The position numbers and the translations under genes were made by a program. This document shows positions 9,721 through 56,497 of a stretch of DNA of 64,000 nt, piece after piece (the stretch's first letter is position 1; each line of letters starts with the position of its first letter). The notes beneath the pieces were generated by a model. The model did not search any database, was not told the origin of the DNA, and was given only the letters and a program-made list of their open reading frames with translations. Location: positions 119,550 to 183,549 of the forward strand of contig CAJXMG010000001.1 in NCBI GenBank assembly GCA_913056395.1. Reading direction: 5' to 3'. Source of the stretch: an uncultured bacterium (GTDB lineage Bacteria > Planctomycetota > UBA8108 > UBA1146).

Positions 9721-9761
9721 CCTATGGACCCCTTTCCGGGTACTCAGTCTCTCGAACCCCT

Positions 9762-19765: not shown

Positions 19766-20029
19766 ATGATTTCATTACTGGATCAACACGTGGATTCAAA
19801 CCACCGGCAGTCACAGGTGGTCAGCAGAATTCGGGAATTTTTGCAGACAGGTCAGCACCTTGACGAAGCTCCGGAGTCGGTGCTGAGAGACCTCGACGAG
19901 CTGTGGGATCGCGTTCAGCGCGCCCGTGCTCGCGGCGTTGAAGGCGTGCGACTGTCGAAAGGTTTGCACCGGGCTGCACGCGCCAGGGCATTTGGAAAGT
20001 TCGCCGCTCCGACCCTCGACCACATTTGA
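19766..20029 (+). CDS. Small hypothetical ORF between mraZ and rsmH
   Basis: 87-aa ORF that fills the 333-nt gap. No recognisable domain; may not be a real gene. Confidence 0.25.
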   Translation: MISLLDQHVDSNHRQSQVVSRIREFLQTGQHLDEAPESVLRDLDELWDRVQRARARGVEGVRLSKGLHRAARARAFGKFAAPTLDHI

Positions 20030-20953: not shown

Positions 20954-21237
20954 GTCGCAAATCCCTGTGGATGCTGCTTTGGGTTGTCGTCGCCGGTTTT
21001 GGAATGTCATGGGTGGGAATCCAGAAGATGGTCTTGAAAAGAGATGCTTACAAAGGCGCGGATCAACTGAAGGAAACCCAAAGGCTTAATGAGGAGTTGC
21101 AGATCGAAAAGATCCTTCTTGAATCAGCCCTCGTCAGGGAGATGCGACAGGCAGAATTGCGAGAGGCTCTGGTACTCGTGGGGAACTCATTCAGTGAGCA
21201 GGGAGTTCCAACACAGGGAAACTCGGAAGAGCAATGA
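20950..21237 (+). CDS. ftsL: FtsL-like small bitopic division protein
   Basis: 95 aa with an N-terminal TM (LWMLLWVVVAGFGMSWV) followed by a coiled-coil. ATGA overlap with the rsmH stop; sits in the canonical ftsL slot. Confidence 0.5.
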   Translation: MSRKSLWMLLWVVVAGFGMSWVGIQKMVLKRDAYKGADQLKETQRLNEELQIEKILLESALVREMRQAELREALVLVGNSFSEQGVPTQGNSEEQ

Positions 21238-21282
21238 GTGGAAAAATAAATACGCCCGGATAGAGAGTGAACAATCAGTTAA

Positions 21283-23355: not shown

Positions 23356-24800
23356 AGGGGAACGGAATATCGCTGATTGATTCCGCGACTGGGGACCTGC
23401 AAGAGGTTCTCGGTGCACCTTTGCTTTCCGGTTCGCAGACCGACTCCTTCAAATGTCTGACCTGGGATGACCGACAGGCTCCCGGAGATCTCTTCATCGC
23501 CATTCGCGGAACGGTTCATGACGGCGCGGCTTCCATCCCACAAATGCTGGAATTGGGAGTCCGTGGCATCATTTCGGAAAATGAGCCTCCCGCCAATCCG
23601 CCGGCAGATCTGACCTGGTGGCAAGTGGAGAATTCACGGGAGGCTTTCGCCCGACTGGTTCACCACGCCTGGGGTGAGCCCGCCGCGCAGATTCCGGTCT
23701 TTGGCATCACTGGGACCAATGGCAAAAGCAGTACGGTTCATCTGTTGGCTTCGATTCTGGATGTCGCAAACATGAACCCGGGTTGGGTAACGACCGTCGA
23801 TCAAAGGATCGCAGGAGCATGTCGAGAGAGTTCCTGCACCACTCCTTCTGCGGATCAGTTGGCTCTCAGTCTTCGTGAACATGTCGAGTCGGGTGGTCGA
23901 TCGATGGTGTTGGAGATCTCCTCCCATGCCATCCATCAACACCGTGTCACGGGAATTCCGCTGGTCGCTGCCGCTGTGACACAGTTGGGGCGCGACCATC
24001 TCGACTATCACGGAACCGTCGAAGAGTACCATGCCGTCAAAAAGGAACTTCGCCATCAAGTCAGGGAGGGGGGCGTTTTCCTGCTTCCCGATCACGTAGA
24101 CAAGGACACGGTGGCATTCGAGGATCTTTTTACGGGCCGACGCTGGACCGGCAAGGTTCTTCAACAGAATGCAAAAGGGGTGCGGGCTATCCTTCAGGGT
24201 GCTGATTGGGAGTTCGAACTGAATTGGAACCGGCCTGCACGCCACGATCTTTCGAATGCTTTGTGTGCTACTGTTCTCGCCGATTCCGCAGGGATATCTG
24301 TTGCCTGTATTCGGGAGGGATTGGTGAGTGCCAAGCCAGTTCCCGGTCGGATGGAAGAAGTTTCCCGGGGAGTCTTCGTCGATTATGCGCACACTCCTGA
24401 CGCTCTCGAATCGGCGTTGAAAGTGTGTCGTGAGATTTGCCGTGGAGAATTGAGAGTCCTCTTTGGTTGCGGGGGGGACCGTGATCAGGGGAAGCGATCA
24501 CAAATGGGCAAGGTGGCTGCGGATCATGCGGATGCCATTTTTCTCACCGATGACAATCCCCGATCAGAGTCCTCCGATCAGATCCTTGAGCAGATCCTCG
24601 TCGGTGTGGGGGATCATCCCCGGGTAGAGAAAAATACGGACAGGCGTCAAGCCATCGGGACAGCCCTTCAGAACCTTCGTGAAGAAGACATCCTGTTGAT
24701 CGCCGGAAAAGGTCATGAAACCACGCAGGAGATCAGGGGGGAGAAGTTTCCCTTCGACGACTGTGAAGTGGTCAGGGATTGGCTGGGGGTGACCACGTGA
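23349..24800 (+). CDS. murE: UDP-N-acetylmuramoyl-L-alanyl-D-glutamate--2,6-diaminopimelate ligase
   Basis: Mur ligase P-loop (GITGTNGKSST) and MurE-type N-terminal domain (DSFKCLTWDDRQAPGDLFIAIRG). Sits in the dcw slot after ftsI. Confidence 0.8.
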   Translation: MVKGNGISLIDSATGDLQEVLGAPLLSGSQTDSFKCLTWDDRQAPGDLFIAIRGTVHDGAASIPQMLELGVRGIISENEPPANPPADLTWWQVENSREAFARLVHHAWGEPAAQIPVFGITGTNGKSSTVHLLASILDVANMNPGWVTTVDQRIAGACRESSCTTPSADQLALSLREHVESGGRSMVLEISSHAIHQHRVTGIPLVAAAVTQLGRDHLDYHGTVEEYHAVKKELRHQVREGGVFLLPDHVDKDTVAFEDLFTGRRWTGKVLQQNAKGVRAILQGADWEFELNWNRPARHDLSNALCATVLADSAGISVACIREGLVSAKPVPGRMEEVSRGVFVDYAHTPDALESALKVCREICRGELRVLFGCGGDRDQGKRSQMGKVAADHADAIFLTDDNPRSESSDQILEQILVGVGDHPRVEKNTDRRQAIGTALQNLREEDILLIAGKGHETTQEIRGEKFPFDDCEVVRDWLGVTT

Positions 24801-26236
24801 AGCCGATTTCACTTTCAGCCCTTGTTTCCCGATTGCGAACCCCCGTCCAGAGTGGCGACGCTTCCCTGGCGGGAATCGATGTGAAAGTTCACTCCAGCTC
24901 CCACAAGGATGGGGGTGAAGTGACGATCACCGGATTCGCCCTGGACAGCCGGCATGTGAAGCCAGGCTTCGCCTTTCTCGCATTTCAGGGGGACAATTGT
25001 CATGGACTCGATTTTGCTGAACAGGCGATAGCGTCGGGGGCCTGCCTGGCGATCTCTGAACCTGGATACGATCGGGAACTCCCGATACCCCTTTTGGAAA
25101 TCCCGGACCTGCGTCAGGGGTTACGTCACTTGGCTACCGCAGAGCAGGTACCGGCTCCCGGCAAGCCCAAAACTGTAGCGGTCACCGGGAGTGTTGGAAA
25201 AACGACGACCTGTCAACTGGGGTCTGCATTGAGTAGCAGTCTCTACTCGACCCACTCGCCCAGAAACTCTTTCAATAATTTCCTCGGCGTCCCCATCACC
25301 ATTCTCGAAGCCTCCGCAGAGACAGAAGTTCTGTGGCTGGAGATGGGAACCAACGAGCCCGGCGAAATTTCGGGATTGGCAGCGATGGGGCAACCGGACA
25401 TTGCGGTGGTTACCGCAGTGGGGGCGACCCATCTGGAGAAGTTGCAGAGTACCGAAGGTGTTTTCCGGGAAAAATTTTCCCTCTTTGATCAGGCCGGAAT
25501 TCAAAGGGCTGTTGCCCCGATTCAATATCGATTTGATTCGATGCCTGTGCCCTGTTGGTGGACAGGGCCGGGAGGAGATGTGGAAATCCAGCCGATTATA
25601 TCCTTGCCGGGAAGGTATCGTTTCGAGCATCGCCCTCAAGGTTTGATCTTCGAATTCGAAACAACGTTACAGGGAACAGGTTCACTTCGCTGTCTCGAGT
25701 CTGCGATCACCGTGGCGTTGGAGTTGGGGATTCCTGTCGAAAAAATACGTGCTTCAACTCCACTCCTCGAGCTTCCTCGCCTTCGCCAGGAACTGTATTC
25801 CATCGATGGTGTGGAGTTGGTGCTCGATTGTTACAACGCTTCACCCCCTTCCGTTGAGGGGGCAATCGCAGACTTAAGTTCCACTTCTGCTTCCCGCAAA
25901 ATGGCTGTCCTCGGCACCATGGAGGAGTTGGGAGCCGACGAGGCGGAATACCATCGGCAAATGGGACAGGCTTGTGCCAATGCGGGACTCGACCATCTTT
26001 GGTGTGTGGGGCGAGGCGCACAGTGGTTGCATGAAGGGGCCCAATCTGCGGGTGGGGCGTCTTCAATCCTTTCCAGAGATGATCACGGTTTGGCCTGCCT
26101 CCTATCAGAGTTGCAGTCTGGGGACCGAGTGCTCTTCAAGGCTTCCAGAAAGGAAGCTCTCGAATCTCTTGCTCATGATTTAAAGAATCGAATGGAAGAG
26201 CGGCTTGCCATGGCGAAGGGGGGACCCCAGGAATGA
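24779..26236 (+). CDS. murF: UDP-N-acetylmuramoyl-tripeptide--D-alanyl-D-alanine ligase
   Basis: FALDSRHVKPGFAFLAFQGDNCHG N-domain and P-loop (VTGSVGKTTT). Start is TTG 24779, or GTG 24797 which overlaps the murE TGA as GTGA. Confidence 0.8.
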   Translation: MAGGDHVKPISLSALVSRLRTPVQSGDASLAGIDVKVHSSSHKDGGEVTITGFALDSRHVKPGFAFLAFQGDNCHGLDFAEQAIASGACLAISEPGYDRELPIPLLEIPDLRQGLRHLATAEQVPAPGKPKTVAVTGSVGKTTTCQLGSALSSSLYSTHSPRNSFNNFLGVPITILEASAETEVLWLEMGTNEPGEISGLAAMGQPDIAVVTAVGATHLEKLQSTEGVFREKFSLFDQAGIQRAVAPIQYRFDSMPVPCWWTGPGGDVEIQPIISLPGRYRFEHRPQGLIFEFETTLQGTGSLRCLESAITVALELGIPVEKIRASTPLLELPRLRQELYSIDGVELVLDCYNASPPSVEGAIADLSSTSASRKMAVLGTMEELGADEAEYHRQMGQACANAGLDHLWCVGRGAQWLHEGAQSAGGASSILSRDDHGLACLLSELQSGDRVLFKASRKEALESLAHDLKNRMEERLAMAKGGPQE

Positions 26237-27399
26237 GTTCCTCTACCGAGATGACTTCCATCACTTCTGCAGATGGCCGATTGCAACCGGCCAAACAGAG
26301 AGTGCCGATCTTTGCTTCTCTGGTTTTCTTGTTGATCATCGGATCCATCGCCCTGTTCAGTGCCACCAGTTATCGTTCAGAGGTTCAGCATGATGACGTC
26401 TGGCAGATGTGGGCGGGTCAATTCAGAGGGTACACTCTTGGCCTGCTATTTTTTATGATCGGTTACTTCGTCTCTCCGCGTCGTTGGTTAACCTCGGGAG
26501 CGAGTGTGAGCCTTGCAGTGGTTCTGGTTCTACTTCTTTTGGGAACCAAATTCTCGCCGATGGGGATTGAGAGAAATGATGCCCAGCGTTGGTTAAAGAT
26601 TGGCAGTCTCGTTTTTCAGCCGTCGGAGTTGGCCAAGTTTGTTCTTCCGGTTTTACTTATCTATCTCACTGGGCCGTGGAAGTTTCAGGGCAATCCCCTG
26701 AATCCGCCGAGTAATACTCCCCGGTATATCCTTTCTGTGGGCCTGATTTTCTTCCCCCTGTTTCTTATCCTGATCCAGCCGGATCTCGGAACCACCGTCG
26801 TCGTCGGAGGCCTCTGCCTGATTCCGATTTCCAGATCCCGACGGCTCCGCCGTTTGGTCAGCATGGGTGCGGTCGGACTCATGGCGATCCTCCTTTTGAC
26901 TCAGACTTCCCGATTCCCTGAGTTCGGAGAGCGATTCAGGGCGATCTGGGACCCCCAGTCAGTGGATCAGGTTTGGGCCGGTTTCCAGTCCATCGGCAGT
27001 GGTGGACTCTTTGGCAGGGGGCTTGGTGAAGGCGCAGGGAAATTGGGTTATCTGCCTTCCGCATACAACGATTTCATCTTTGCTGTCTACGCAGAAGAGA
27101 CCGGGTTCGTTGGAGTGACAGTGGTGGTGGTGCTCTTCGGTACGCTGCTGTGGTGTGGCCGCAAGCTCTGGCAGTCACTGGAAGACGATGATCTTTCATT
27201 GCTGGCGATGGTGTTGACTCTGGCCATCACCGGACAGGCCGCATTGAATATCATGGTCAATCTGGCCTTGCTCCCGACCAAAGGAATTGCTTTGCCCTTT
27301 TTCTCCCATGGATCCACGGGATTGGCGGTATTCATGGGCATGTCAGGTGTGCTCTTGGCCCTGACACGATGTCGTGGCAAGGAGGTCTTGCCGGCATGA
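26233..27399 (+). CDS. ftsW: SEDS-family peptidoglycan glycosyltransferase FtsW
   Basis: ~10 TM helices and SEDS motifs (GSGGLFGRGLGEG, LPSAYNDFIFAVYAEETGFVG, LPTKGIALPFFSHGSTG). ATGA overlap with murF. Confidence 0.8.
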   Translation: MSSSTEMTSITSADGRLQPAKQRVPIFASLVFLLIIGSIALFSATSYRSEVQHDDVWQMWAGQFRGYTLGLLFFMIGYFVSPRRWLTSGASVSLAVVLVLLLLGTKFSPMGIERNDAQRWLKIGSLVFQPSELAKFVLPVLLIYLTGPWKFQGNPLNPPSNTPRYILSVGLIFFPLFLILIQPDLGTTVVVGGLCLIPISRSRRLRRLVSMGAVGLMAILLLTQTSRFPEFGERFRAIWDPQSVDQVWAGFQSIGSGGLFGRGLGEGAGKLGYLPSAYNDFIFAVYAEETGFVGVTVVVVLFGTLLWCGRKLWQSLEDDDLSLLAMVLTLAITGQAALNIMVNLALLPTKGIALPFFSHGSTGLAVFMGMSGVLLALTRCRGKEVLPA

Positions 27400-28502
27400 A
27401 TCGCAGAATCCTCATCGTGGGCGGCCATACGGGTGGGCATCTTTATCCGGCGGAGTCTCTCGCCAGAGAGTTGATAGTCGGGGGAGTGGGAACTCCGGTA
27501 TTGCTGGATCATCAGCGACCTCTTGAACAACGGGTGTTCAACGATGAAGGAATGGAAAAAGTTCTCGCTCCATGGCATGCAAAGGGGCGATTTGCGTTTG
27601 TCTCCTCCTTGCCAGCCGCCATTAAATTTTTGAGACAGCAGAAGATCTCCGCAGTGGTCGGTTTTGGTGCCTTCCCTTCTGTGATCGCCGGGTTGGCAGC
27701 AAAGTGTCTCAGGATTCCCCTCTATCTTCATGAACAGAACCGGGTGATGGGATTGGCAAACAGGATCCTTGCCCCGCTGGCGGAGAAAGTTTTTCTCTCC
27801 TCTCCACTCGTTTCCCCTTCCAGAAATCTGCGCTCAAAAAGCGCAATTCTGGGTTGCCCGATCCGGCCAGAGTTTCAGCCTTGCGAAGCCCCCGACACAC
27901 CCCTGCGTTGCTTGATTCTCGGCGGAAGTCAGGGAGCGGAAGAGGTCAATCACCGGATTCTTGCTGCCGCAGATTTCCTCAAGCCGGAGTTGAAGCAGAA
28001 TCTCAAGGTCGTTCACATGGCGAGCGAGCCGAACACTCAGCAAGTCAGGAAGGCCTGGAGTGACAAGGGCTTCAGTGCCCGTGTAGAACCCTACCTTCCC
28101 GAGATGTTTAAAGAGATGTCACAATCCCATCTGGTGATCTCGCGAGCGGGGGCATCGACATTGGCGGAGTTGACAGCAGTGGGTCGTGGAGGAATCTTCC
28201 TTCCGTATCAGAATCATGCAGATCAACACCAACTTCATAACGCCCGATTCCTAGAAGAATGGGGTGCCGGAATCGTATTGGATTCTGGCACTACAGCGGA
28301 ACACTTCGCCGAGATTCTGGAAAAAGCATTGTTGAATGGCCTATGGCGCGAGTATTCGAGTCGGGCTGGCGAGTTGGGCCGCCCCCGGGCGGCGACCGCC
28401 ATCAGTGAAACGATTCGTATCCATCTGGACGCACGGGAGGGACGTTCCTTTTCCGATCGTCCTGGAGAGCCAGCCTTGTTACGGAATGAGGTGGAAGCCT
28501 GA
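27369..28502 (+). CDS. murG: Undecaprenyldiphospho-muramoylpentapeptide beta-N-acetylglucosaminyltransferase
   Basis: N-terminal GGHTGGHLYPA motif and a GT28 C-terminal domain (ISRAGASTLAEL). Confidence 0.8.
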   Translation: MSWQGGLAGMNRRILIVGGHTGGHLYPAESLARELIVGGVGTPVLLDHQRPLEQRVFNDEGMEKVLAPWHAKGRFAFVSSLPAAIKFLRQQKISAVVGFGAFPSVIAGLAAKCLRIPLYLHEQNRVMGLANRILAPLAEKVFLSSPLVSPSRNLRSKSAILGCPIRPEFQPCEAPDTPLRCLILGGSQGAEEVNHRILAAADFLKPELKQNLKVVHMASEPNTQQVRKAWSDKGFSARVEPYLPEMFKEMSQSHLVISRAGASTLAELTAVGRGGIFLPYQNHADQHQLHNARFLEEWGAGIVLDSGTTAEHFAEILEKALLNGLWREYSSRAGELGRPRAATAISETIRIHLDAREGRSFSDRPGEPALLRNEVEA

Positions 28503-29185
28503 TGGGTGCGTTGATCCGCTGGACTCTGGTGCTGGGAATACTCTTTTTCGGGGTCAGTGGAACCATCGATTGGTGGACTCCCGTGGTCGTGCCTTCGTCC
28601 AATGCCATCAGTGATCGCTCCGTTTCAAGAGTCGATCTAGTTTGGGTTTCCGATTCCGGGACCGGTGAGGTTTCGACGGAGCGTGGGGAACAACGAGAGA
28701 TTCTTCCGGAAAGGCTGGAACCCGGGCCGGGTCAATATCGGGGAGGGATCGTCGATCTTGATGAACCTTCAGATCCCATGATTTCCGGGGGCCGTCAGCA
28801 AACGCAATCGAGGGTCTATTCCGTTCAGCAGGGGGACACACTGGGAGAGATCGCTCAGCGATTTTTGGGCTCTGTGGGGGTTGGCACCCGAAAGCTCCGA
28901 GAACTGAATCCCGAGATTCCCGAGAACGGCATGATCAGGGTCGGGCAGGAATTGTTGATTCCAGCGGTAGTTTCCACGCCTTCTCCAAAGGCTCCCCCGG
29001 TTCAGACACAAACACCGATTTCACCCAGGATTCATGTGGTTCAGGAGGGCGATACCCTCTCCGCAATTACCCGCAAATATTTGGGGCATGAAAACTTCAG
29101 CGAGATTCTGAGTGCCAACCGGGATATCCTCTCCGATCCGAACCAACTCAAGCCAGGTTTGAGATTGAGGATTCCGAATGATTGA
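28502..29185 (+). CDS. Membrane-anchored protein with two LysM domains
   Basis: N-terminal TM (LIRWTLVLGILFFGVSG). Two LysM repeats (YSVQQGDTLGEIAQRFLG...LNPEI; HVVQEGDTLSAITRKYLG...ANRDIL). TGATG overlap with the murG stop, and an 8-nt overlap with the murC start. Confidence 0.7.
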   Translation: MGALIRWTLVLGILFFGVSGTIDWWTPVVVPSSNAISDRSVSRVDLVWVSDSGTGEVSTERGEQREILPERLEPGPGQYRGGIVDLDEPSDPMISGGRQQTQSRVYSVQQGDTLGEIAQRFLGSVGVGTRKLRELNPEIPENGMIRVGQELLIPAVVSTPSPKAPPVQTQTPISPRIHVVQEGDTLSAITRKYLGHENFSEILSANRDILSDPNQLKPGLRLRIPND

Positions 29186-30617
29186 ATCCCATGAGAGGCG
29201 CACAAGGATGCCGGCACAGAAAAACCAAGGGACTGATTCTCCTCAAAATGAGTGGATTCATGTCATTGGTGTCGGCGGCAGTGCGACCCGAGGTTTGGCC
29301 TGCATGCTTCGTCGCCAAGGGCATCCCGTTTCTGGCAGTGATCAGGATCCCGATTCCCGGAGTATTCTGGAAGAACATGGGGTGATCTTCTACGAAGGCC
29401 ATGCCGCTTCAAACCTAGCTCAAGAAGTGCAGACGGTCGTTCATACCCGTGCAATTCACCCTTCCAACCCGGAGTTGCTGGAGGCTCACAAGAGGTCGGG
29501 AGTAAAGATCTACACCTACAGCGAATATCTGGGTTTGATCTCCGAACGCCTGTCGACGATCGCAGTGGCGGGAACCCACGGGAAAACCTCTACCACGGCC
29601 TGTTTGTTCAGTGTTTTTCAGGCTGCAAAAAGGGATCCTTCCCTGATCGTGGGGGGAGAGGTGGTCCAGATTCAAGCCGGTTGGCATCAAGGAGAGGGAA
29701 CCGAGTTTCTGGTTGAGGCTTGCGAGTTTGACAAGGCGTTCCTCGACCTGAAGCCAAAGGCTGCAATCATCACCAATGTGGATTTGGATCACCCCGAGAT
29801 CTACAAAGATCTCGAATCGGTGAGGCAAACTTTCCGTGAATTTCTCGCCAATCTTTCTGACGGTTCCTGGGTGGTTTGCCCCATCGAGGTCAAGGAGGCT
29901 CTCAAAGTCGACGATCGACTGAGGTGGCGTACCTTCGGTATGGAAAACAATGCAGATTTGCAGCTGAAGGAAAGTGTCAGTACTGCAGGCTCTACAAAGG
30001 TTCTGTGGAGTTGGGCAGACGGCAGGGTGTTTTCTGCCACCCTCAATGTTCCCGGTGCCCACACCAGATCCAATGCTTCCGCGGTGGTGGCGCTGGCGGA
30101 TGCCCTGAATATCTCATCTGAAGAGATGGCCCGCGGCCTTGAAAACTACCGGGGAGTTTGCCGGAGATTTGAGAAGCGAGAAATTCTCCCGGGGATTGAG
30201 TGGATCGAAGACTATGCGCATCATCCAGAAGAGGTTCGTGCCACGCTGGAGACCGCTCGGGAGGTCTACCCCCATCAGCGACTTCACGCACTTTTCCAAC
30301 CGCATCAGGCGACTCGATTGAGTGCCTTCAGTAAAGGCTTTGCTGAGGAGTTGTCCCGAGCAGATCAGGTGACTCTTTTGCCAATTTTTTCAGTTCGTGA
30401 AGAATTAGACCAGTTTCCAGAGGACCTTGTCGATCAACTGGCTTTGAAAATCCGTCAAAAGGGCAAAGAGTGTCAGGTCACGGATTTTGAAAAAGCGGTT
30501 TCAGAATTGCCCAAACATCTCCAATCAGGAGATGTACTGATCTCCATCGGTGCAGGGAATGTGTACCAGGTTGGTAATCTCGTTCGAGAGAACCAGCGCA
30601 GGCAGGTGACACAATGA
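29178..30617 (+). CDS. murC: UDP-N-acetylmuramate--L-alanine ligase
   Basis: IHVIGVGGSATRGLA (MurC N-terminal Rossmann) and P-loop (VAGTHGKTSTT). Confidence 0.8.
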   Translation: MIESHERRTRMPAQKNQGTDSPQNEWIHVIGVGGSATRGLACMLRRQGHPVSGSDQDPDSRSILEEHGVIFYEGHAASNLAQEVQTVVHTRAIHPSNPELLEAHKRSGVKIYTYSEYLGLISERLSTIAVAGTHGKTSTTACLFSVFQAAKRDPSLIVGGEVVQIQAGWHQGEGTEFLVEACEFDKAFLDLKPKAAIITNVDLDHPEIYKDLESVRQTFREFLANLSDGSWVVCPIEVKEALKVDDRLRWRTFGMENNADLQLKESVSTAGSTKVLWSWADGRVFSATLNVPGAHTRSNASAVVALADALNISSEEMARGLENYRGVCRRFEKREILPGIEWIEDYAHHPEEVRATLETAREVYPHQRLHALFQPHQATRLSAFSKGFAEELSRADQVTLLPIFSVREELDQFPEDLVDQLALKIRQKGKECQVTDFEKAVSELPKHLQSGDVLISIGAGNVYQVGNLVRENQRRQVTQ

Positions 30618-31513
30618 AACCGCCAACCAACATTCAGGAAAACAAATCGATGGGGGACCTGACGTGGTTCCGCAGTGGTGGTAACGCCAGGTTTTACCTG
30701 TCTCCTTCTTCTGAAGAAGAATTGATAGAGGCCACCAAGTGGGCTTTCCGTGAAGAAGTGCCTTTTCACCTCATGGGCTTGGGGGCCAACTCTCTCTTTC
30801 CGGATGACGGTTATCCCGGTTTGATTCTCCACATGGTCAGGTTTCGACAGAGAGGGGAGCACTATCGAAGTTGCACTCCATCGGTGGTGGAGGTCGATGC
30901 CGGAATCAATCTCGAAAATCTGGTGAAAAAATTGAACGAGGCCGGTCTCGGTGGTTTCGAAAAGTTTGTGGGAATTCCCGGTACCGTCGGTGGATCTGTA
31001 TGGGGGAATGCCGGTGCGCAAAATTCCAGCCTGGGAGACCGGGTCGAATCTGTGAAAATTCTCGACTCGCAGGGTGCTGTCCATTGGGTCAAGGGAGATC
31101 AGATTACATGGAGATACCGTTCCTCCGGCTTGGGAAACCGAATCATTCTTGCTGCACGATTCCAGGTTGATCCTGATCAGGAACCGGAAGAGTTGAAAAG
31201 CCGGAGTGCGGGCTTTTTGCAATACAAAAAAAGTGTTCAGCCTTATGACGAAAAGTCGACCGGCTGCATTTTCAAAAACCCCGGTGCGGGTCGCAGTGCC
31301 GGTCAGTTGATCGATGAGTTGAACCTCAAGGGGTTATGCGAGGGGGGAGCACAGGTTTCCGATTTGCACGGGAACTTCATCGTCAACACTGAGCAGACTG
31401 CAACCACGGCGGACGTACTAGCTCTCGTCAGCAAAGTGCAGGAAAAAGTCTACGAAGAAGAGGGCGTGAGATTGGAACGGGAAGTCATCGTCGTCGGGGA
31501 GGGCAGTGAATGA
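30614..31513 (+). CDS. murB: UDP-N-acetylenolpyruvoylglucosamine reductase
   Basis: FAD-binding domain (WFRSGGNARFY, HLMGLGANSLF, GIPGTVGGSVWGNAGA) and a MurB C-terminal region. ATGA overlap with murC. Confidence 0.75.
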   Translation: MKPPTNIQENKSMGDLTWFRSGGNARFYLSPSSEEELIEATKWAFREEVPFHLMGLGANSLFPDDGYPGLILHMVRFRQRGEHYRSCTPSVVEVDAGINLENLVKKLNEAGLGGFEKFVGIPGTVGGSVWGNAGAQNSSLGDRVESVKILDSQGAVHWVKGDQITWRYRSSGLGNRIILAARFQVDPDQEPEELKSRSAGFLQYKKSVQPYDEKSTGCIFKNPGAGRSAGQLIDELNLKGLCEGGAQVSDLHGNFIVNTEQTATTADVLALVSKVQEKVYEEEGVRLEREVIVVGEGSE

Positions 31514-32352
31514 GTACTCCCAATGCTTCTCAGGGCCAATGGAAAACAGCCTTTGCTTTTTTACTGGCTTTTGTCTTTGTGGGACTTGCTCTCAGGCATG
31601 CCCGCAATGAGGTCGACCTTCAACGAGCTGCGGACGCAGGTTCCTGGAGCCTGACTGAAGACAGTTTTCCGGATTGGTTTCCTCAAACATTGACACCGGC
31701 CCTCAAAGAATTACAGCAGATCCCATCCCGAATTCCCCATGACAGCGTTCACTGGCGTGATCACGTTCGAAGTCAATTGTTGGAGAATCCATGGGTTCAT
31801 TCTGTGGGGTCGATTGAACGTCAGATGGGCGAGATTTCTTTCAGCGCAGTTTTGAGAAGACCCGTCGTCGCCGTCCGTTGTCCTGGAGGGCATCTGTTGG
31901 TGACCCCAGAGGGAAGGGTCATCGATTACGAAGAGGGATATACGCTGGATCCTCACTGGAGGATTCCGGAGTATTCATCCATGGGAGGCAATGCAAATGT
32001 GGAGGCAAACCTCCGCACGTTGCCGGCTGGAGATGAGTGGAGTCAGTTGTTGACATTGGTGGGTGACCTCTTCGATCACGGAATCCTCTCTGATCACTCA
32101 GGGTTTGTGGAGGAACTCCGCTGGAGTCCGCAGAATGATGGTGGATTCTGGTATCTGATCTGTGAGGGGGGACTGCGTCTGGCCTGGGGAAAGGCCACCG
32201 GTTCCGGGTCCAGATTGCCGGGGAGCGTGCGGGATAAAATCACTGCCATGAGAAAAGTGATTGCTGACAAGGATCGATTGGTCCCATTGGCAACCTCCAT
32301 CGACGAAATCAGCCTCTTCGCTGGTCCTAACCCGATCGTTACCCAACGCTGA
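31510..32352 (+). CDS. ftsQ: FtsQ/DivIB-like bitopic protein (assigned mainly by position)
   Basis: ATGA overlap with murB. N-terminal TM (WKTAFAFLLAFVFVGLAL) and a ~250-aa periplasmic domain. It is the last coupled gene of the dcw operon. Sequence similarity to FtsQ is weak. Confidence 0.4.
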   Translation: MSTPNASQGQWKTAFAFLLAFVFVGLALRHARNEVDLQRAADAGSWSLTEDSFPDWFPQTLTPALKELQQIPSRIPHDSVHWRDHVRSQLLENPWVHSVGSIERQMGEISFSAVLRRPVVAVRCPGGHLLVTPEGRVIDYEEGYTLDPHWRIPEYSSMGGNANVEANLRTLPAGDEWSQLLTLVGDLFDHGILSDHSGFVEELRWSPQNDGGFWYLICEGGLRLAWGKATGSGSRLPGSVRDKITAMRKVIADKDRLVPLATSIDEISLFAGPNPIVTQR

Positions 32353-32484
32353 ACACCTCCCGGCTACTGACCCTGAATATCACCCCGGATCCCTCCCATA
32401 ACCCCTCGGAGAGGTAGCGTCTGGGAGGCTCGGGGATTATCCTGATAGCTGTTCAGAGGCAAAAAATGTCGAAAAGGAGCCGGA

Positions 32485-32754
32485 GTGTCCAATCCGGATC
32501 GGTATCGCAGGTTGATCGGGGAAGTGGCCCAGGAGATGGGTTACGTTTCCGCCGAAGCTGTCGACGAAGCTTTGTCTGTTCAGGAGAAGCGCCGATCGGA
32601 GGGACTCAAGGTTCCCCTGTTGGGGCAAATCCTGGTTGAGCTGAATCATTTGACCCCGGAACAACTGCAACAACTGATTGAAGTGATCTACCCCGTCGAG
32701 GAAGACGGGGGCGAAGATCCAGATCCCCCCTCAGAGAGCGGTGAGGAAGACTGA
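32485..32754 (+). CDS. Small acidic protein with a tandem MshEN/GspE-N-like motif
   Basis: 89 aa. RRLIGEVAQEMGYVSAEAVDEALSVQ and LLGQILVELNHLTPEQLQQLIEV fit the MshEN pattern RLGxxLxxxGxLxxxxLxxALxxQ. Its stop overlaps the next start as TGATG. Confidence 0.5.
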   Translation: MSNPDRYRRLIGEVAQEMGYVSAEAVDEALSVQEKRRSEGLKVPLLGQILVELNHLTPEQLQQLIEVIYPVEEDGGEDPDPPSESGEED

Positions 32755-34772
32755 TGTCCGCAGACGACGGCAAGAAAAAACGCAGAGTACCTGCACCCAG
32801 AAAAAAAGCCGGTGGTGGGGAAAGCTCCCGAAGAGTTCCACCGAGAAGAGTCGCTCCGGGAAAGAAGCCCGCAACTCCTTCTGAAGAATCGGTCGATTCC
32901 TCCGCTGCAGAAGAAGCCGCAGCAAAGCAAGCCGCAGCCCAGCAAGCCGCAGCCCAGCAAGCCGCAGCAAAGCAAGCCGCAGCAAAGCAGGCCGCAGCAA
33001 AGCAGGCCGCAGCAAAGCAGGCCGCAGCAAAGCAGGCCGCAGCAAAGCAGGCCGCAGCAAAGCAAGCCGCAGCAAAGCAGGCCGCAGCCCAGCAAGCCGC
33101 AGCAAAGCAGGCCGCAGCAAAGCAAGCCGCAGCAAAGCAGGCCGCAGCCCAGCAAGCCGCAGCAAAGCAAGCCGCAGCAAAGCAAGCCGCAGCAAAGCAA
33201 GCCGCAGCGCGTCAGGCTGGTGCTCCCCAAGGAGATACCGCAAAGAAGCCAGCAGTTCCTGCGCGGAAGGCGAGACCTGGCTCGCGGGCACCTGCTGCAA
33301 CGGGATCCGCTGCCAGAGCGGCCTCACCTCGCAAGGGTGCAGGTCGCCGGGGCGCTCCGCCCGCAAGTGCACGTCGCAGGACAGGCGGAGAAGGTGATCT
33401 TGATGAGTTCGAGGGAGATGAGAAAAAATCACCACTGGTGTGGATTCTAGGTGGGGCTGCAGTGGTATTGATCGGTGGATTGGGCATCGTGATGATGTCG
33501 GGTGATGATCCGCCACCTGAGCCAGCCCCCAGCGCCAATACCGCCGCAAACAAACCCAGCCCCAAACAGCAAGAAGAGATTCGTGAGGAGCGGGCCAGAA
33601 AAGCCCTCGACCGGGTCGAGAAAGCAAACTCTGCCAATCCGACCCAACGCTATGAATGTGCAGCCCGATTGCAAATGGTCGCGATCGATTACTCCAATAC
33701 CCAGGCCGGTGCTGAAGCGGGTGAGTTGAGATCCCAACTGCTCAGGACCTGGAATGACGAAGTCGTCGCCGCCTGGAATGCGCTCCGCGGTGATGTATTG
33801 ACCGCATTCAGTGAGGCACGATTTGAGCAGGCTGAGCGCATGCTTGAAGAATTGCCGCCAGTGTTTTTGGGGGCGGCAGACGTTTTGGAGTCTGCATTTG
33901 AAAATGAAATCGATCGACTGCGGAAAGACGCCAAGGCGCAGGCACGTTTCAAGAAACGTCTGGATGAACTCTCGACCAAGGCCGGGGTCTACGCCCGGAA
34001 AGGCTATGAGGACATTGCGATTGCTGTGATCGAAGCCCTCCCCGAAAAAGTGGAGGAAGATGCTCCGGATGTCTGGCGCTTGAAGGAAGAGTTGATCCAG
34101 AAAATTCAGCGTGACGGCCTCGCCTTGTTGATCGAACAGGAATCGGCTCTGGAAGCGGAATTGGCAGAAGCTCGTCGCCTGGAAGAAGAGCGCAAGCAAG
34201 CCGAGCGTATCCGGCGCTGGCAGGAGCTGCGTGACTCTGTCGCATGGAAACCCCTGTTGAGTCGATTCAACCTGTACAACTGGGTGGCCTCCAGCGACAA
34301 GATGTTGGAGAAACCACTCTGGAGGGTTCTCGATCGCAATGGTGCAGGTGTCATGCTGGTGGACAATCGTTCCGGCCGCGATGCCTACACCGGGGTATAT
34401 TCGAACCATTGGGAAGATTATGTCCTCGAGTTTGAGCTCAACCTGAAGGTGGGGGCATTGCGAATTTCCCCGCGAACCCAGGCGAATGCTCAAATGGGGG
34501 CGATCACCGATGGCACTTCACCGCCTTTGGAATTGGGAGACGATTTCCCGAAGAACCGCTGGCTCAAAGTCACCATGGAGGTCAACGGCAACTCGGTGGA
34601 ACTCCGCTACGGCGATTCGGGTAAACGGCTGACCATGGATTCCGAAACAACTCGACTTCCCTCCACCGGTGGTTTTGTGTTTTACGCAGGTGACGGCACC
34701 CGGCTCGAGATTCGTGGAGTCAGGGTCAAGCTGGTCAATGACACCCGTGAGGGGGGAATCTTCGCCAAATAG
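32754..34772 (+). CDS. Bitopic protein: basic N-terminus, ~20 AAAKQ pentapeptide repeats, one TM, ~430-aa C-terminal domain
   Basis: 672 aa. Reads KKKRRVPAPRKKAGG..., then (AAAKQ/AAAQQ) x ~20, then an Arg/Pro-rich linker, a TM (LVWILGGAAVVLIGGLGIVMM) and a helical plus beta-rich C-terminus. Followed by a terminator. Confidence 0.6.
   Translation: MSADDGKKKRRVPAPRKKAGGGESSRRVPPRRVAPGKKPATPSEESVDSSAAEEAAAKQAAAQQAAAQQAAAKQAAAKQAAAKQAAAKQAAAKQAAAKQAAAKQAAAKQAAAQQAAAKQAAAKQAAAKQAAAQQAAAKQAAAKQAAAKQAAARQAGAPQGDTAKKPAVPARKARPGSRAPAATGSAARAASPRKGAGRRGAPPASARRRTGGEGDLDEFEGDEKKSPLVWILGGAAVVLIGGLGIVMMSGDDPPPEPAPSANTAANKPSPKQQEEIREERARKALDRVEKANSANPTQRYECAARLQMVAIDYSNTQAGAEAGELRSQLLRTWNDEVVAAWNALRGDVLTAFSEARFEQAERMLEELPPVFLGAADVLESAFENEIDRLRKDAKAQARFKKRLDELSTKAGVYARKGYEDIAIAVIEALPEKVEEDAPDVWRLKEELIQKIQRDGLALLIEQESALEAELAEARRLEEERKQAERIRRWQELRDSVAWKPLLSRFNLYNWVASSDKMLEKPLWRVLDRNGAGVMLVDNRSGRDAYTGVYSNHWEDYVLEFELNLKVGALRISPRTQANAQMGAITDGTSPPLELGDDFPKNRWLKVTMEVNGNSVELRYGDSGKRLTMDSETTRLPSTGGFVFYAGDGTRLEIRGVRVKLVNDTREGGIFAK
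32916..33209 (+). repeat. Tandem 15-nt DNA repeat (gccgcagcaaagcaa / gccgcagcccagcaa) x ~20
   Basis: Near-perfect head-to-tail 15-mers visible directly in the sequence. They encode the AAAKQ repeats and create spurious ORFs in other frames on both strands. Confidence 0.9.
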
Positions 34773-34821
34773 AAGATGAACGCGGGCTGTCACTCTGGCA
34801 GGCCTGTGCTGAAGAGTCAGA

Positions 34822-34861
34822 GGAGGGGCTGTCACTGTGGCAGTCCCTCCTTTTTCTTTTT
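34822..34861 (+). terminator. Rho-independent terminator
   Basis: GGAGGGGCTG...CAGTCCCTCC hairpin (10 bp, one G-T wobble) followed by TTTTTCTTTT. Confidence 0.6.
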
Positions 34862-35120
34862 CGAAGAGGTTTTCTTAAGTTGCCCTGATTTATAGGTTTA
34901 GAGCAGCGGATTCTGTGGCATATGGCCCGCTCTTTGCTGTGAAGATCATGGCCGCCCATAGTCTGCGCAGGCTTCTGGCAGGTTGATCGCCCGTGATCGG
35001 TCCTCCGGAGCAGGGTCAGAGGGGGTACCCGGCTGTTGCACGGGAACTTTCGGGAAACAGTGATTCCCCTTTTGTGGCGGTGTCCAACTTTGCGAATTCG
35101 AAACAAGAGGAGAGGCTCCA

Positions 35121-36755
35121 ATGGCCAAGGAACTGACGTTTGAGGACTCCGCCAGAGAAAAGCTGCTGAGTGGAGCGGACAAGGTGGCCCGTGCGGTGAA
35201 AACCACACTGGGACCGAGGGGGCGAACCGCCATCATCGATCGATCCTGGGGTGGTCCAAAGGTCACCAAGGACGGTGCGACCGTTGCCGAGGAGATCGAT
35301 CTCGACGATCGCGTGGAAAACATTGGTGCGCGACTGATGCGCGAGGCGGGCTCATTGACGGCGCGTGAAGCCGGAGATGGCAGTACCACTGCCACCGTGC
35401 TCGCCCATGCCATCTTTTCCCAGGGAATGAGACAGGTCGCAGCGGGGGAGAATCCTGTTTTGCTGCAGCGTAGTCTCCTGACCGTCACCGGCAAGATCGA
35501 CAAGTACCTCAGGGAGATGGCTGCCGAGGTGGAGGACTATGATGCCGTGACCAACATTGCCACTATCGCTGCCAACAATGATGAAGCGATCGGCAAATGC
35601 ATCGCGGAAGCTCTCGAGCGTGTGGGTGAGGACGGAGTTTGCAGCATCGAGGAAGGCAAGAGCACGGAAACGGTTCTTGATGTCGTCGATGGACTGCACT
35701 TCGATCGTGGTTACATTTCGCAGCAGTTTGTTACCGACGCCGATTCAGCCTCTATCACTCTGGAGAACCCCTACATTCTGATCATGGAGGAGAAGGTTTC
35801 GAACATCTCCCAGATCCTGCCTGTTCTGGAGAAGGTGGTCGAGAAGAACCAGCCGCTGTTGTTGATTGCAGAGGATGTGGACGGTGAAGCGCTGTCGACA
35901 CTTGTGGTCAACAGTCAGAAGGGGGCCCTCAAGGTCGTAGCCGTAAAAGCTCCCGGATACGGTGATCGTCGCAAGGCGATGCTGGAAGATATTGCTGTCG
36001 CCACCGGTGGCCGTGCCATTTTCAAGGATTTGGGAATTGAGCCTTCCGGCCTGAAGATTTCTGATTTGGGTAAAGCCAAAAAGGTGGAGATCAACTCCCA
36101 GACCACCACGGTTCTCGAGGGTGGCGGGAAAAAGAAGGACATGAAGGAGCGTACTCGCCTGATTCGCATGGAAATCGACAACGCAAGCAGCGATTACGAT
36201 CGAGAAAAACTGCAAGAGCGTTTGGCCCGTCTGGTAGGTGGCGTGGCTGTGATCCGTGTCGGTGGAGCAACGGAGGGTGAGGTCAAGGAGCGCAAGAAGC
36301 GTTTTGACAATGCCTTGTCCGCGACCCGTTCTGCCCTCGAGGCCGGTATTCTCCCTGGAGGTGGAATCGGTTTGATCCATGCCAGTGCGGAAGTTTCGTT
36401 GTCACGATTCAAGAATCCTCTCGACAAGTTGGCCGCAGTGATCCTTGCCAAGGCTCTTGAGGGGCCTTTCCGTCAACTTGCAGTCAACGCCGACCTTGAG
36501 CCGTCCCGTATTCTGCGGGAGATCAAGGCTGAGGAGAGTGAAAGCTATGGCTACGACTTTGCCTCCCTTGATTACTGTGACATGTATGAAAATGGAATTA
36601 TCGACTCCTGTGCGGTGATTTGCAGTGCCCTGCAAAATGCGGTGAGCACGGCAACGATGCTTCTGACTTCGAATGCGGTCGTCACCGACATTCCGAAGGA
36701 GACTGAGGAAGATGATCATCACCACCATGACCACGAAGGCGTTGGCGCATTCTAG
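35121..36755 (+). CDS. groEL: Chaperonin GroEL (paralog 1, His-rich C-terminal tail)
   Basis: MAKELTFEDSAREKLL...GPRGRTAIIDRSWGGPKVTKDGATVA, AGDGSTTATVLA and GGGIGLI motifs. The C-terminus is EEDDHHHHDHEGVGAF rather than a GGM tail. Confidence 0.9.
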   Translation: MAKELTFEDSAREKLLSGADKVARAVKTTLGPRGRTAIIDRSWGGPKVTKDGATVAEEIDLDDRVENIGARLMREAGSLTAREAGDGSTTATVLAHAIFSQGMRQVAAGENPVLLQRSLLTVTGKIDKYLREMAAEVEDYDAVTNIATIAANNDEAIGKCIAEALERVGEDGVCSIEEGKSTETVLDVVDGLHFDRGYISQQFVTDADSASITLENPYILIMEEKVSNISQILPVLEKVVEKNQPLLLIAEDVDGEALSTLVVNSQKGALKVVAVKAPGYGDRRKAMLEDIAVATGGRAIFKDLGIEPSGLKISDLGKAKKVEINSQTTTVLEGGGKKKDMKERTRLIRMEIDNASSDYDREKLQERLARLVGGVAVIRVGGATEGEVKERKKRFDNALSATRSALEAGILPGGGIGLIHASAEVSLSRFKNPLDKLAAVILAKALEGPFRQLAVNADLEPSRILREIKAEESESYGYDFASLDYCDMYENGIIDSCAVICSALQNAVSTATMLLTSNAVVTDIPKETEEDDHHHHDHEGVGAF

Positions 36756-36761
36756 AAATAG

Positions 36762-38378
<1,617 letters not shown>

Positions 38379-38387
38379 GGGAGTTGC

Positions 38388-39509
38388 ATGGCAACCAGGG
38401 ATTACTACGACGTTCTCGGAGTCGATCGCGATGCGAGCGACTCCGAGATCAAAAAAGCCTATCGAAAGATGGCTCTCAAGTATCACCCGGATAAAAATCC
38501 CGGGGATGAAGCTGCTGAGAGGCATTTCAAGGAAGCGGCTGAGGCCTATGAAATCCTCAGTGATTCCGAGAAGAGAAAAATCTACGACACCCATGGTCAT
38601 GATGGACTCAGCGGCATGGGGGGTGGTGGAGGCTTCTCCGACATCGAGGATATCTTCCGCAATTTCGGAGATATTTTCGGCGGCGGTGGTGGAATCTTTG
38701 GAGACATCTTTGGTGGAGGTCAGGGGGCTGCCCGCAGGGGAGAAAGCCTTCGGGCTCATGTCACGATTTCCCTTGAAGCGGCCGCCAGCGGAACCAGCAA
38801 AACGATCAGGTTGAGACGCAAGGTTCATTGCGGACCTTGTTCCGGTAGCGGAGCAGCAGCGGGAAGTCGCCCCGTAACCTGTAACACCTGCTCCGGCCGT
38901 GGTCAGGTATTGCGTTCTCAGGGTTTCTTCAGTGTTCGCAGTGCATGTCCCACCTGTCAGGGGCAGGGGGAGATCATCGAAAACCCTTGCAAAACCTGTC
39001 AGGGAGCAGGACTCGAACAGAAGAATGAAGAGATCGAGATCGAAATCCCCGCGGGTGTTGAAGAGGGAATGATTCTCCGAGTCACCGGCAGGGGTAATGA
39101 AGGTGCTCGCGGAGTCCCTGCAGGGGATTTGCAAGTCGTCATCGGCTATGAGCGTCATGCCTTTTTCCAGCGCGTCGATGATCATGTCGGATTTGAACTT
39201 CCTGTCTCCTATTCCCAGGCGGTGCTCGGTGCAGATCTGGAAGTCCCCACCCTTGAGGGGAAAGCTGTATTGACCGTTCCCCCGGGTACACAAAGCGGTG
39301 AGATCCTGCGTATGCGAGGGATGGGTTTCCCTTCAGTGCATTCCCGTCGCAGCAAGGGGGACCAGTTGGTCGAAGTGACCATCGAGGTTCCCAAAAAGGT
39401 CAGTGACGAACAGGAAGAGTTGTTGAGGCAACTCGCAGAGATTGAAGAGACTGAAGTCGGTGCTAGAAGGAAGGGATTCCTTGATCGCTTCAAGGAATAC
39501 TTCGGTTAG
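38388..39509 (+). CDS. dnaJ: Molecular chaperone DnaJ
   Basis: J domain with HPD (YHPDKNP), a G/F-rich region and four CxxCxGxG zinc-finger repeats. Confidence 0.9.
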
Positions 39510-39519
39510 GAGCCGAACC

Positions 39520-40128
39520 ATGGAAACCAACAAGCAGGACACATCGATGGAGCATGAAGGTCAGCCTGAAGAGACCCAGCAATCAGGTGAGGGGCAGGAA
39601 TCTGTCAATCAACAGGAAGCGGTCGATCAGGAGTCCCCTGAAATGGGGGAGAAAGACACTGAGACCGTTGAGCAGGATCCTGAAGAAGAGAAGGCTTTTC
39701 TTCTCGATCAGCTTCAGCGTGCACACGCAGAGTTAGCCAACTTTCGCCGCCGAACCCTGGAAGATCAGTCTACCCAGCGATTGCGAACGACCGTTTCAGT
39801 TGTCAGGTCATTTCTACCTGTTCTCGACGGTCTTGAGGCAGCAGTAAAAGCCGGGGCCGACGAGGGCGGTGAAGAAGCCATCCGCGAGGGATTGGCGATG
39901 ATCGCCGAACGCGTGGATTCGGTTTTGAAGGACCTCAAGGTCGAAAAAATCGATTCCAAAGGGGAAGACTTCAACCCTGAGTTGCACGAAGCGATGTTGC
40001 AGGTGGATCAACCGGATGCACGTCAGGGTGAAATCGTCGAGGAAGTTGAAAAGGGTTACCGCTGCGGAGACCTTTTGGTCAGGGCTGCACGAGTCGTAGT
40101 TGCCCGCGGCAGTGAATCTGCTGAATAG
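39520..40128 (+). CDS. grpE: Nucleotide exchange factor GrpE
   Basis: GrpE helical N-terminal motif (ELANFRRRTLEDQ) and C-terminal beta domain (GEIVEEVEKGYRCGDLLVRAARVVV). ATG 39520 is preceded by TAGGAG; the ORF-track start at 39442 overlaps dnaJ. Confidence 0.75.
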   Translation: METNKQDTSMEHEGQPEETQQSGEGQESVNQQEAVDQESPEMGEKDTETVEQDPEEEKAFLLDQLQRAHAELANFRRRTLEDQSTQRLRTTVSVVRSFLPVLDGLEAAVKAGADEGGEEAIREGLAMIAERVDSVLKDLKVEKIDSKGEDFNPELHEAMLQVDQPDARQGEIVEEVEKGYRCGDLLVRAARVVVARGSESAE

Positions 40129-50852: not shown

Positions 50853-50919
50853 TCCGGTTTTTTTCAAGGGATCAGGCCTTCTGCAATCGTCATACAGGCA
50901 AGAAAGTATTGGTTAGCCA

Positions 50920-52525: not shown

Positions 52526-52531
52526 AGCAGA

Positions 52532-56382: not shown

Positions 56383-56497
56383 CTTTCAACTTCCGTTTTG
56401 GTACCGCTGGTACTCTTATCTGGAGGTCGAAAGGTGCTGTATCCCATCTGTATCAGAACGGGTAGCATCTTCAGTAGACCTCGAATAAGGATACAAA

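Follow-up and report, generated by a model that had tools for sequence, protein, structure and literature searches.

Planctomycetota divide and form their septal wall in the absence of FtsZ and FtsA, and the way in which they do so is an open question (PMC5147048, PMC12283558). It is raised in a concrete form by a stretch of 64,000 nucleotides (nt) from an uncultured marine planctomycete (contig CAJXMG010000001.1, positions 119,550 to 183,549; the whole stretch is called the window hereafter). There, the cluster of genes for division and the cell wall (dcw) closes with an ftsQ-like gene, and two further genes, one small and one large, stand directly behind it. Do they belong to the machinery of division, to the envelope at large, or do they merely live next door? 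Our main finding is that this pair, which encodes a stand-alone protein of the MshEN/GSPII type and a single-pass membrane protein with a lectin-like C-terminal domain, keeps its place beside the dcw cluster across divergent Planctomycetota. It is this synteny that is new, the parts themselves being of known kinds, and literature searches returned no description of such a module. What was a curiosity of a single window becomes a defined gene pair, with boundaries, domain assignments and a dcw linkage that extends to lineages whose GroEL proteins are ~51-58% identical, and it may be regarded as a candidate envelope or division factor.

The elements that define the locus are the following, in positions of the window:

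31510 to 32352, plus strand: ftsQ-like gene, 280 amino acids (aa), with an N-terminal transmembrane helix; final gene of the dcw operon, which sets the position of the module
32413 to 32443, plus strand: promoter-like two-block motif GGTRGCG-N18-TATCCT, in the gap between the ftsQ-like and small genes
32474 to 32479, plus strand: Shine-Dalgarno-like AAGGAG, 5 nt ahead of the small-gene GTG, read from the sequence
32485 to 32754, plus strand: small gene, an open reading frame (ORF) of 89 aa with a GTG start, from the ORF list and the raw sequence
32754 to 34772, plus strand: large gene, encoding a 672-aa single-pass (bitopic) membrane protein and coupled to the small gene by TGATG
34819 to 34863, plus strand: intrinsic terminator with a 16-bp stem, a 3-nt loop and a T-run (hairpin at 34819 to 34853)

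The dcw cluster of the window reads mraZ, rsmH, an ftsL-like ORF, ftsI, murE, murF, ftsW, murG, a gene for a LysM protein, murC, murB and the ftsQ-like gene. An earlier note on this DNA had described a run that is translationally coupled from rsmH to the ftsQ-like gene and lacks ftsA and ftsZ. The genes are indeed joined by start/stop overlaps, with the sole exception of a 45-nt gap between ftsL and ftsI, and neither ftsA nor ftsZ was found after the ftsQ-like gene, the pair being followed there by groEL, a second groEL, dnaJ and grpE. The gap of about 130 nt that the same note had placed ahead of the pair measures 132 nt, and both the ORFs and the raw sequence confirm that the acidic 89-aa protein overlaps the 672-aa frame, the TGA of the one and the ATG of the other sharing one base. 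Both are genuine: homologues of each are conserved in many metagenomes.

The gene that anchors this position had been called ftsQ-like, and the fold of its product bears the name out. The protein is single-pass, and comparison of a structure model built from 6 sequences gives its periplasmic part the POTRA-plus-beta-domain fold found in FtsQ/DivIB; its slot behind murB, where the dcw cluster has its 3' end, is that of FtsQ as well. Where it differs from FtsQ/DivIB is in sequence, which lies below the reach of Pfam, NCBIfam and PDB profiles: there was no match to POTRA_1 or FtsQ_DivIB_C in Pfam, none in NCBIfam and none to FtsQ with phmmer, and a 13-sequence profile retrieved nothing among PDB sequences. 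These searches missed FtsQ because the protein is too divergent, and fold comparison alone succeeded.

To establish how far the arrangement extends, a synteny scan was made over one genome per GTDB species. It found 24 loci, nearly all in metagenome-assembled genomes (MAGs) labelled Planctomycetota, with two labelled Bacillota and Proteobacteria; one locus, 96% identical, belongs to isolate MCMED-G47. Within the clade of the window, the order murB, ftsQ-like, small, large, groEL is present in every locus for which upstream DNA is available (15 loci keep the dcw order). In 17 loci of this clade the small gene adjoins the large one; stop and start overlap, as TGATG or ATGA, in 13 of the 17, and 2 more, with a frame broken inside the repeat of the large gene, have an intact junction. 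Since the clade is collinear on both sides of the pair, we examined the distant relatives recovered by profile search. All six that have upstream DNA (L029, L031, L034, L036, L038 and L039) show the order ftsW, murG, LysM, murC, (murB), ftsQ-like, SAM_HAT, small, large, and on a short contig, L032, the small gene still adjoins the large one. The small genes of these lineages, which encode 72 to 97 aa, are plainly related to that of the 89-aa protein. Downstream of the pair, L031 and L038 have genes of no relation to groEL; with the groEL side lost in these two, the linkage that is never broken is the one to dcw. The survey thus answers the question of synteny that the earlier note had posed: the pair holds its position after the dcw genes, also where the downstream neighbours differ.

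The conservation of the parts is uneven. At the deepest comparisons, identity amounts to 51-58% for GroEL, 39-52% for the small protein, 37-41% for MurB, 26-36% for the FtsQ-like protein and 24-31% for the C-terminus of the large protein. A small protein that retains 39-52% identity where GroEL retains 51-58% is under unusually strong constraint. The C-terminal 435 residues of the large protein have 30 cluster-level homologues, and a profile search of the large protein against 1.84 billion representatives gave 77 matches at E <= 1e-3, 52 of them at E <= 1e-10; the cluster names of the carriers are Planctomycetota or Planctomycetes.

The gene that intervenes between the ftsQ-like and small genes in all distant lineages, and is absent there in the clade of the window, is SAM_HAT (PF01887/PF20257; SAM hydroxide adenosyltransferase/DUF62). 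Its coordinates in the respective loci are:

L029, 6390 to 7214
L031, 8621 to 9424
L034, 8382 to 9200
L036, 8669 to 9478
L038, 8422 to 9165
L039, 8496 to 9311

Does the pair belong to the dcw operon or merely follow it? The two-block motif in the gap occurs once per locus and in the same place in the window and in 14 related loci (regular-expression search), with a fixed 18-nt spacing and a spacer of variable sequence; in the window its TATCCT ends 41 nt ahead of the small-gene GTG, and the exact motif is found nowhere else in the 64 kb. This combination of fixed spacing and variable spacer leads us to read it as a putative promoter signature. A sigma-70 consensus scan did not detect it, and it may represent a promoter type that this uncultured lineage uses. 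The terminator that had been noticed after the large gene consists of a hairpin, its stem 16 bp long, and a T-run; no terminator-like site was found on the plus strand between the ftsQ-like and small genes, and Rfam reported no RNA family in the module region. Because a conserved promoter-like motif precedes the pair and a terminator follows it, the data suggest that the pair forms its own operon abutting the dcw operon, and the idea of a continuation of the dcw transcript is weakened.

The large protein is composed of the following segments:

32772 to 32852, plus strand: basic, proline-rich N-terminal motifs KKRRVPxPRKK ... RVPxRR (residues ~7-33)
32902 to 33208, plus strand: tandem 15-nt repeat encoding 20 AAA[K/Q/R]Q units (residues 55-154; Tandem Repeats Finder)
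33216 to 33434, plus strand: basic Pro/Ala/Arg-rich linker (residues 155-227; net charge +8 over residues 161-227)
33435 to 33503, plus strand: single transmembrane helix (residues 228-250; Kyte-Doolittle)
33561 to 34238, plus strand: periplasmic all-helical domain with a ~58-residue terminal stalk helix (residues ~270-495; AlphaFold 2)
34320 to 34736, plus strand: concanavalin-A-like (DUF1080-type) beta jelly roll (residues ~523-661)

The outline proposed earlier, a basic N-terminus, one transmembrane helix and a periplasmic part of ~430 aa, agrees with these data. The 19-residue Kyte-Doolittle maximum (2.43) lies at residue 228, no further segment is hydrophobic, and 422 residues follow the helix; the 227 residues ahead of it carry a net charge of about +30. 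An N-in/C-out topology is plausible, as the N-terminus is either a zinc ribbon or a charged region of ~230 aa without a signal peptide, and the C-terminus is lectin-like. In the clade of the window, nine residues of the N-terminal motifs (K8, K9, R10, R11, P13, P15, R16, P29 and R32) are invariant in alignment A3. Distant relatives have in their place an N-terminal Cys4 zinc ribbon, CxxC-N(18-25)-CxxC, of which there is none in the clade of the window. The large homologue of L038 was called too short: its frame extends upstream (~9554 to 10000) and encodes a Cys4 zinc ribbon and ~8 copies of (AELK[KR]Q), a charged helical repeat.

The repeat of the window consists of a 15-nt unit in 20.5 copies (score 479, 92% matches). 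The earlier note had counted about 20 perfect AAAKQ pentapeptides; the number of units is indeed 20, but only 15 are exactly AAAKQ, the others being 4 AAAQQ and 1 AAARQ. The uncharged AAAQQ unit is common in orthologues. Alanine-based sequences are prone to form helices, as do the AAKAA and AAQAA model peptides, and the repeat is predicted to be an Ala-based helical spacer. We rejected an assignment to the ER/K-type single alpha-helix (SAH), in which runs of Glu alternate with runs of Lys/Arg and form i, i+4 salt bridges, since the repeat is devoid of acidic residues. A rigid helical rod of ~15 nm had also been suggested. In orthologues whose C-terminal domains are identical to 95% or more, the repeat is present in 9, 14, 16, 20 and 20 copies, a variation to which the collapse of short-read assemblies could contribute, and in distant relatives it is replaced by disordered basic Pro/Ala/Lys-rich linkers or by other repeats, (AELK[KR]Q)n in one lineage. 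This variability and replacement weaken the notion of a fixed-length ruler, and with it that of the rod. What full-length relatives have in common, except P0094, is a basic cytoplasmic region of ~160-325 aa with a net charge mostly between +14 and +46 (+7 in one relative). The 15-nt repeat also generates artefact ORFs as by-products, one on the minus strand (32688 to 33627, Leu/Cys/Gly-rich) and one on the plus strand (32812 to 33450, PQQSK-rich); in L001 and L002, the gene caller took the minus-strand artefact and shortened the real large gene to 461 aa.

The C-terminal part was modelled with AlphaFold from 23 sequences. The helical domain (model residues 33-258) has a predicted local distance difference test (pLDDT) score of ~79-92, and the jelly roll (model residues 286-424) one of 60-80. 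The former gave a weak TPR_19 match alone and no informative structural neighbour. The latter is closest in fold to solved DUF1080 proteins by structure comparison, and thereby related to the 3-keto-disaccharide hydrolases of PF06439 and to the concanavalin-A-like lectins and carbohydrate-binding modules; the sequence score is sub-threshold, the C-terminal 173 aa matching PF06439 with 15.1 bits (E = 0.025) against a gathering score of 26.8. Unlike DUF1080 proteins, this jelly roll shares its chain with a unique helical domain and a membrane anchor that has a long cytoplasmic arm, and neither catalytic residues nor a ligand are in evidence. No SPOR domain was matched in the large protein with Pfam or NCBIfam, and the basic region gave sub-threshold Hc2/H1-like matches (PF07382, 27.7 versus 40 bits; NF038053, 33.2 versus 80 bits). 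Direct Pfam scans of both proteins returned only FumaraseC_C, a weak DUF4388 and the compositional HC2, none of which we retained as a family assignment. Taken over the family, sequences and models point to a shared architecture: a predicted cytoplasmic partner module, a long basic spacer, a transmembrane helix, a helical domain and a jelly roll.

The small protein is cytoplasmic and acidic (isoelectric point 4.18, net charge -14) and consists of an MshEN/GSPII-type core at residues ~6-70, with two 24-residue repeats, followed by a 19-aa acidic tail. A family profile was built from a single-sequence search (16 clusters, all metagenomic). Against the PDB it aligned residues 6-66 with the GSPII domains of Thermus PilF (6f8l, E = 1.2e-11) and with MshE-N, which is N-terminal in Vibrio MshE (5htl, E = 2.2e-6). 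When segments of PilF were compared with the profile, GSPII-C scored best (26.7 bits), followed by GSPII-B (15) and by GSPII-A, which does not bind cyclic di-GMP (c-di-GMP) (7.3). The NCBIfam model NF053729 ('cyclic di-GMP-binding domain, MshE-related') gave the window protein 36.9 bits, the cutoff being 38, and its relatives 28-45 bits, with 5 of 11 at or above the cutoff; these alignments span positions 2-50 of the 53 in the profile, so that the first Arg and the last Gln are left out. Pfam T2SSE_N (PF05157) found no match at E <= 1 in 12 members of the family. Overall, the evidence supports membership of the MshEN/GSPII fold family, with its four-helix, two-repeat core. With MshE, PilF, PilB and NfrB the protein shares two tandem helix-turn-helix repeats of ~24 residues (hGxxhhxxG...L...L); it differs from them in standing alone, at 72-97 aa, neither N-terminal in a secretion or pilus ATPase nor C-terminal in a glycosyltransferase. 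Peculiar to the family are also a prefix, DRY(R)R, a suffix, L(Y/F)P, and, in the clade of the window, the acidic tail.

The likeness is incomplete at the very positions that define the ligand motif. The strict motif consists of two copies of RLGxx(L/V/I)(L/V/I)xxG(L/V/I)(L/V/I)xxxxLxxxLxxQ (Wang et al. 2016, PMC5013675), the relaxed one is [RKPN]hGxxhhxx[GAS]hhxxxxhxxxhxx[QNKRYWST] (PMC5013675), and by regular-expression search none of 17 family members matches either. In the window protein the relaxed motif is missed because both motif-initial Arg are Leu (L10 and L45); repeat II deviates further at N54, H55 and its last position, I68. The two MshEN-type motifs of the earlier note are therefore valid as family-level profile matches and not as exact copies, given Leu at position 1 of both, Ile at the end of the second and a spacer of 11 residues. 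The deviations are shared: in most members both repeats have Leu or Phe where MshE has Arg9 or Arg38, a basic residue stands one position ahead of motif position 1 (in L031, position 1 of repeat I is itself Lys), and repeat II ends in Ile or Leu followed by Tyr/Phe-Pro, in place of the terminal Gln. The hydrophobic motif positions and both Gly are conserved. The spacer between the repeats, 11 residues in the window (Q33 to L45) and 8-11 in relatives, exceeds the 5 of published MshEN domains; PilF GSPII-C, a binder, aligns with fewer spacer gaps than MshE-N, and since its own spacer also exceeds 5 residues, this length is a soft criterion. With the motif unmatched in the whole family, c-di-GMP responsiveness, which had been entertained earlier, is not implied by the sequence, and binding of c-di-GMP by the small protein is conceivable but doubtful. 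The protein adds a stand-alone, motif-altered member to the MshEN/GSPII family and helps to delimit the features that predict c-di-GMP binding. A further MshEN-repeat protein, of 130 aa, was encountered in a 5.2-Mb genome (P0016); its context is unrelated and it is not a member of the module.

What could such a pair do? The two proteins vary together. A long acidic tail on the small protein (15-27 aa, net charge -4 to -10) goes with a basic Pro-rich N-terminus of the large protein at 8 loci, among them the phylogenetically distant L034, and a short tail (4-9 aa) goes with a zinc-ribbon N-terminus at 5 loci, a pattern that hints at a physical pair. The explanation that we prefer, tentatively and with somewhat less than even confidence, is that the two-gene operon after ftsQ, with its MshEN-type protein and its transmembrane, glycan-binding-like protein, provides an accessory linker for the envelope or for division. 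The small protein would bind its larger partner at the cytoplasmic N-terminus, in the clade of the window partly through the acidic tail, and this N-terminus would act as a short partner-binding module made of basic Pro-rich peptides or, in distant relatives, of the Cys4 zinc ribbon. The complex would couple a cytoplasmic partner or signal to the periplasmic head, which would bind glycan and plausibly peptidoglycan, and it may act alongside the FtsW, FtsI, FtsQ, FtsL and Mur proteins encoded next door. By analogy, the pair might then serve as an accessory FtsN- or ZipA-like transmembrane linker in envelope growth or division of an FtsZ-less lineage. Like FtsN, and in function like ZipA and RodZ, the large protein would be single-pass with a short basic cytoplasmic N-terminus, a long spacer and a possibly glycan-binding periplasmic C-terminus, and its gene stands beside divisome genes. 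It differs from FtsN in lacking a SPOR domain and any sequence similarity, in a cluster that offers neither FtsA nor FtsZ as a partner, in a long spacer that is cytoplasmic where the linker of FtsN is periplasmic, and in a periplasmic head that is a DUF1080-like jelly roll after a helical domain of ~225 aa. The comparison with FtsN and ZipA concerns a possible mode of action and draws on what is generally known of these two proteins.

Several points weigh against this proposal. The co-variation involves ~14 loci that are phylogenetically non-independent, for which reason it is suggestive and not proof, and L027 is intermediate. The model of the jelly roll is of middling confidence (pLDDT 60-80), and a ligand for it is only putative. 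In the model planctomycete Planctopirus limnophila most dcw genes are non-essential (PMC12283558, PMC6952346); with these genes dispensable there, linkage to dcw predicts a role in division only weakly. The promoter-like motif and the terminator mean that co-transcription with dcw is not required. In most lineages dcw, the module, groEL, dnaJ, grpE and yacG are collinear, so part of the synteny may reflect inertia and not function. The most distant homologue, P0094 (E = 3.8e-11, with a 'faint' PF06439), stands beside EutN and DeoC, has no small partner and is not linked to dcw. Finally, the family is rare (77 among 1.84 billion) and every named source is a MAG; the pair can therefore neither be a phylum-wide substitute for FtsZ nor, its carriers being uncultured and few, explain division across the whole phylum. 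A stronger version, in which the pair organises FtsZ-independent division or the synthesis of septal peptidoglycan as a core component, the MshEN protein, with or without c-di-GMP, replacing the input from the FtsA/FtsZ side and the lectin-like head reading or positioning peptidoglycan for FtsW, FtsI and FtsQ, appears improbable to us.

One competitor of an accessory linker is a module unrelated to division, a lineage-specific anchor that binds carbohydrate in the envelope or periplasm, with its cytoplasmic adaptor, in an inherited gene order. The separate promoter-like motif and terminator speak for it, as do the conservation of both flanks in most lineages, groEL, dnaJ and grpE included, the metabolic (EutN/DeoC) context of P0094, and the fact that DUF1080-type and lectin-like domains are general modules of glycan binding or processing; the largely dispensable dcw genes of P. 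limnophila (PMC12283558) fit it equally. Against it, the dcw linkage outlasts the groEL linkage in L031 and L038, it tolerates SAM_HAT being inserted or lost, and it is still there at GroEL identities of ~51-58%, where unselected gene order is usually scrambled; the small protein, too, is very strongly constrained. We consider this reading unlikely, though far from negligible. A similar standing, possible but rather doubtful, is given to the small protein as a high-affinity c-di-GMP receptor, a switch that would act through the large protein on envelope growth or division. Its profile prefers the binding domains GSPII-C and GSPII-B over the non-binding GSPII-A and also reaches MshE-N, and NF053729 scores at its cutoff in 5 of 11 members. 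Moreover, the hydrophobic positions and Gly that it keeps are those whose mutation costs MshEN more than 10-fold in affinity, and a change of Arg9 or Gln32 costs less than 5-fold (PMC5013675). However, in most members position 1 is hydrophobic in both repeats, repeat II ends in Ile or Leu, the spacer has 8-11 residues, the NF053729 alignments omit the first Arg and last Gln, and T2SSE_N is unmatched; in PilF GSPII-A, small deviations from the motif abolish c-di-GMP binding (PMC12002112).

Two further explanations start from the cytoplasmic half of the large protein. Its H1-like basic region could bind DNA and tether the membrane to the nucleoid, as in Noc or the FtsK linker, with the acidic small protein as a modulator. 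The strong basic charge of most full-length members, the compositional Hc2/H1-like matches and an acidic tail that could compete with DNA are what one would expect of such a tether. Those matches are below their cutoffs and driven by low complexity, however, many orthologues carry the uncharged AAAQQ repeat, no recognised DNA-binding domain is present and the conserved periplasmic domains are left unexplained, so that we hold a tether to be quite improbable. The zinc ribbon of the distant relatives, combined with one transmembrane helix and a periplasmic domain, is in turn a common layout of transmembrane signalling, and the large protein might be an anti-sigma-like or other device whose periplasmic sensor controls a zinc-ribbon module that sequesters the small protein or a regulator. 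Yet the conserved neighbourhood contains no sigma factor or regulator gene, the clade of the window has no zinc ribbon, and the small partner is of the MshEN type and not a sigma factor. The zinc-binding anti-sigma (ZAS) motif is HxxxCxxC, from which CxxC-N(18-25)-CxxC differs. A signalling device of this kind seems very improbable, the least credible of the readings considered here.

Several features of the surroundings deserve mention in their own right. In the window, the dcw cluster (20045 to 32352) lacks mraY and murD, and ftsW directly follows murF; L031 and L038 have mraY between these two genes, and in L039 it lies upstream of ftsW. An ORF of 87 aa without assigned function (19766 to 20029) lies between mraZ (19205 to 19711) and rsmH. 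In L001, a fusion of murC and murB encodes a single 779-aa protein. The LysM-domain protein (~230-370 aa) encoded between murG and murC, at 28502 to 29185 in the window and coupled there on both sides, is found at the same position in L001, L003, L029, L031, L034, L038 and L039; L036 has a gene there without a LysM match. This gene is unusual for a dcw cluster, and its conserved place points to a second uncharacterised component of the region, probably peptidoglycan-binding.

The downstream block (35121 to 40128) comprises two divergent groEL paralogues, dnaJ and grpE in the window and in most related loci, which add a Zn_ribbon_8 gene and yacG. There is no groES next to the groEL genes of the window, and a search upstream of groEL1 for an operator like CIRCE (controlling inverted repeat of chaperone expression) found no such inverted repeat, only two 9-nt palindromes. 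The C-terminal tail of GroEL1 is acidic and His-rich: EEDDHHHHDHEGVGAF. Further downstream, positions 50001 to 58000 have a G+C content of 0.44-0.49, compared with ~0.55 elsewhere in the window, and may be a horizontally acquired island. Finally, a tRNA gene at 62085 to 62168 on the minus strand (55.5 bits) is the sole Rfam match in the 64 kb.

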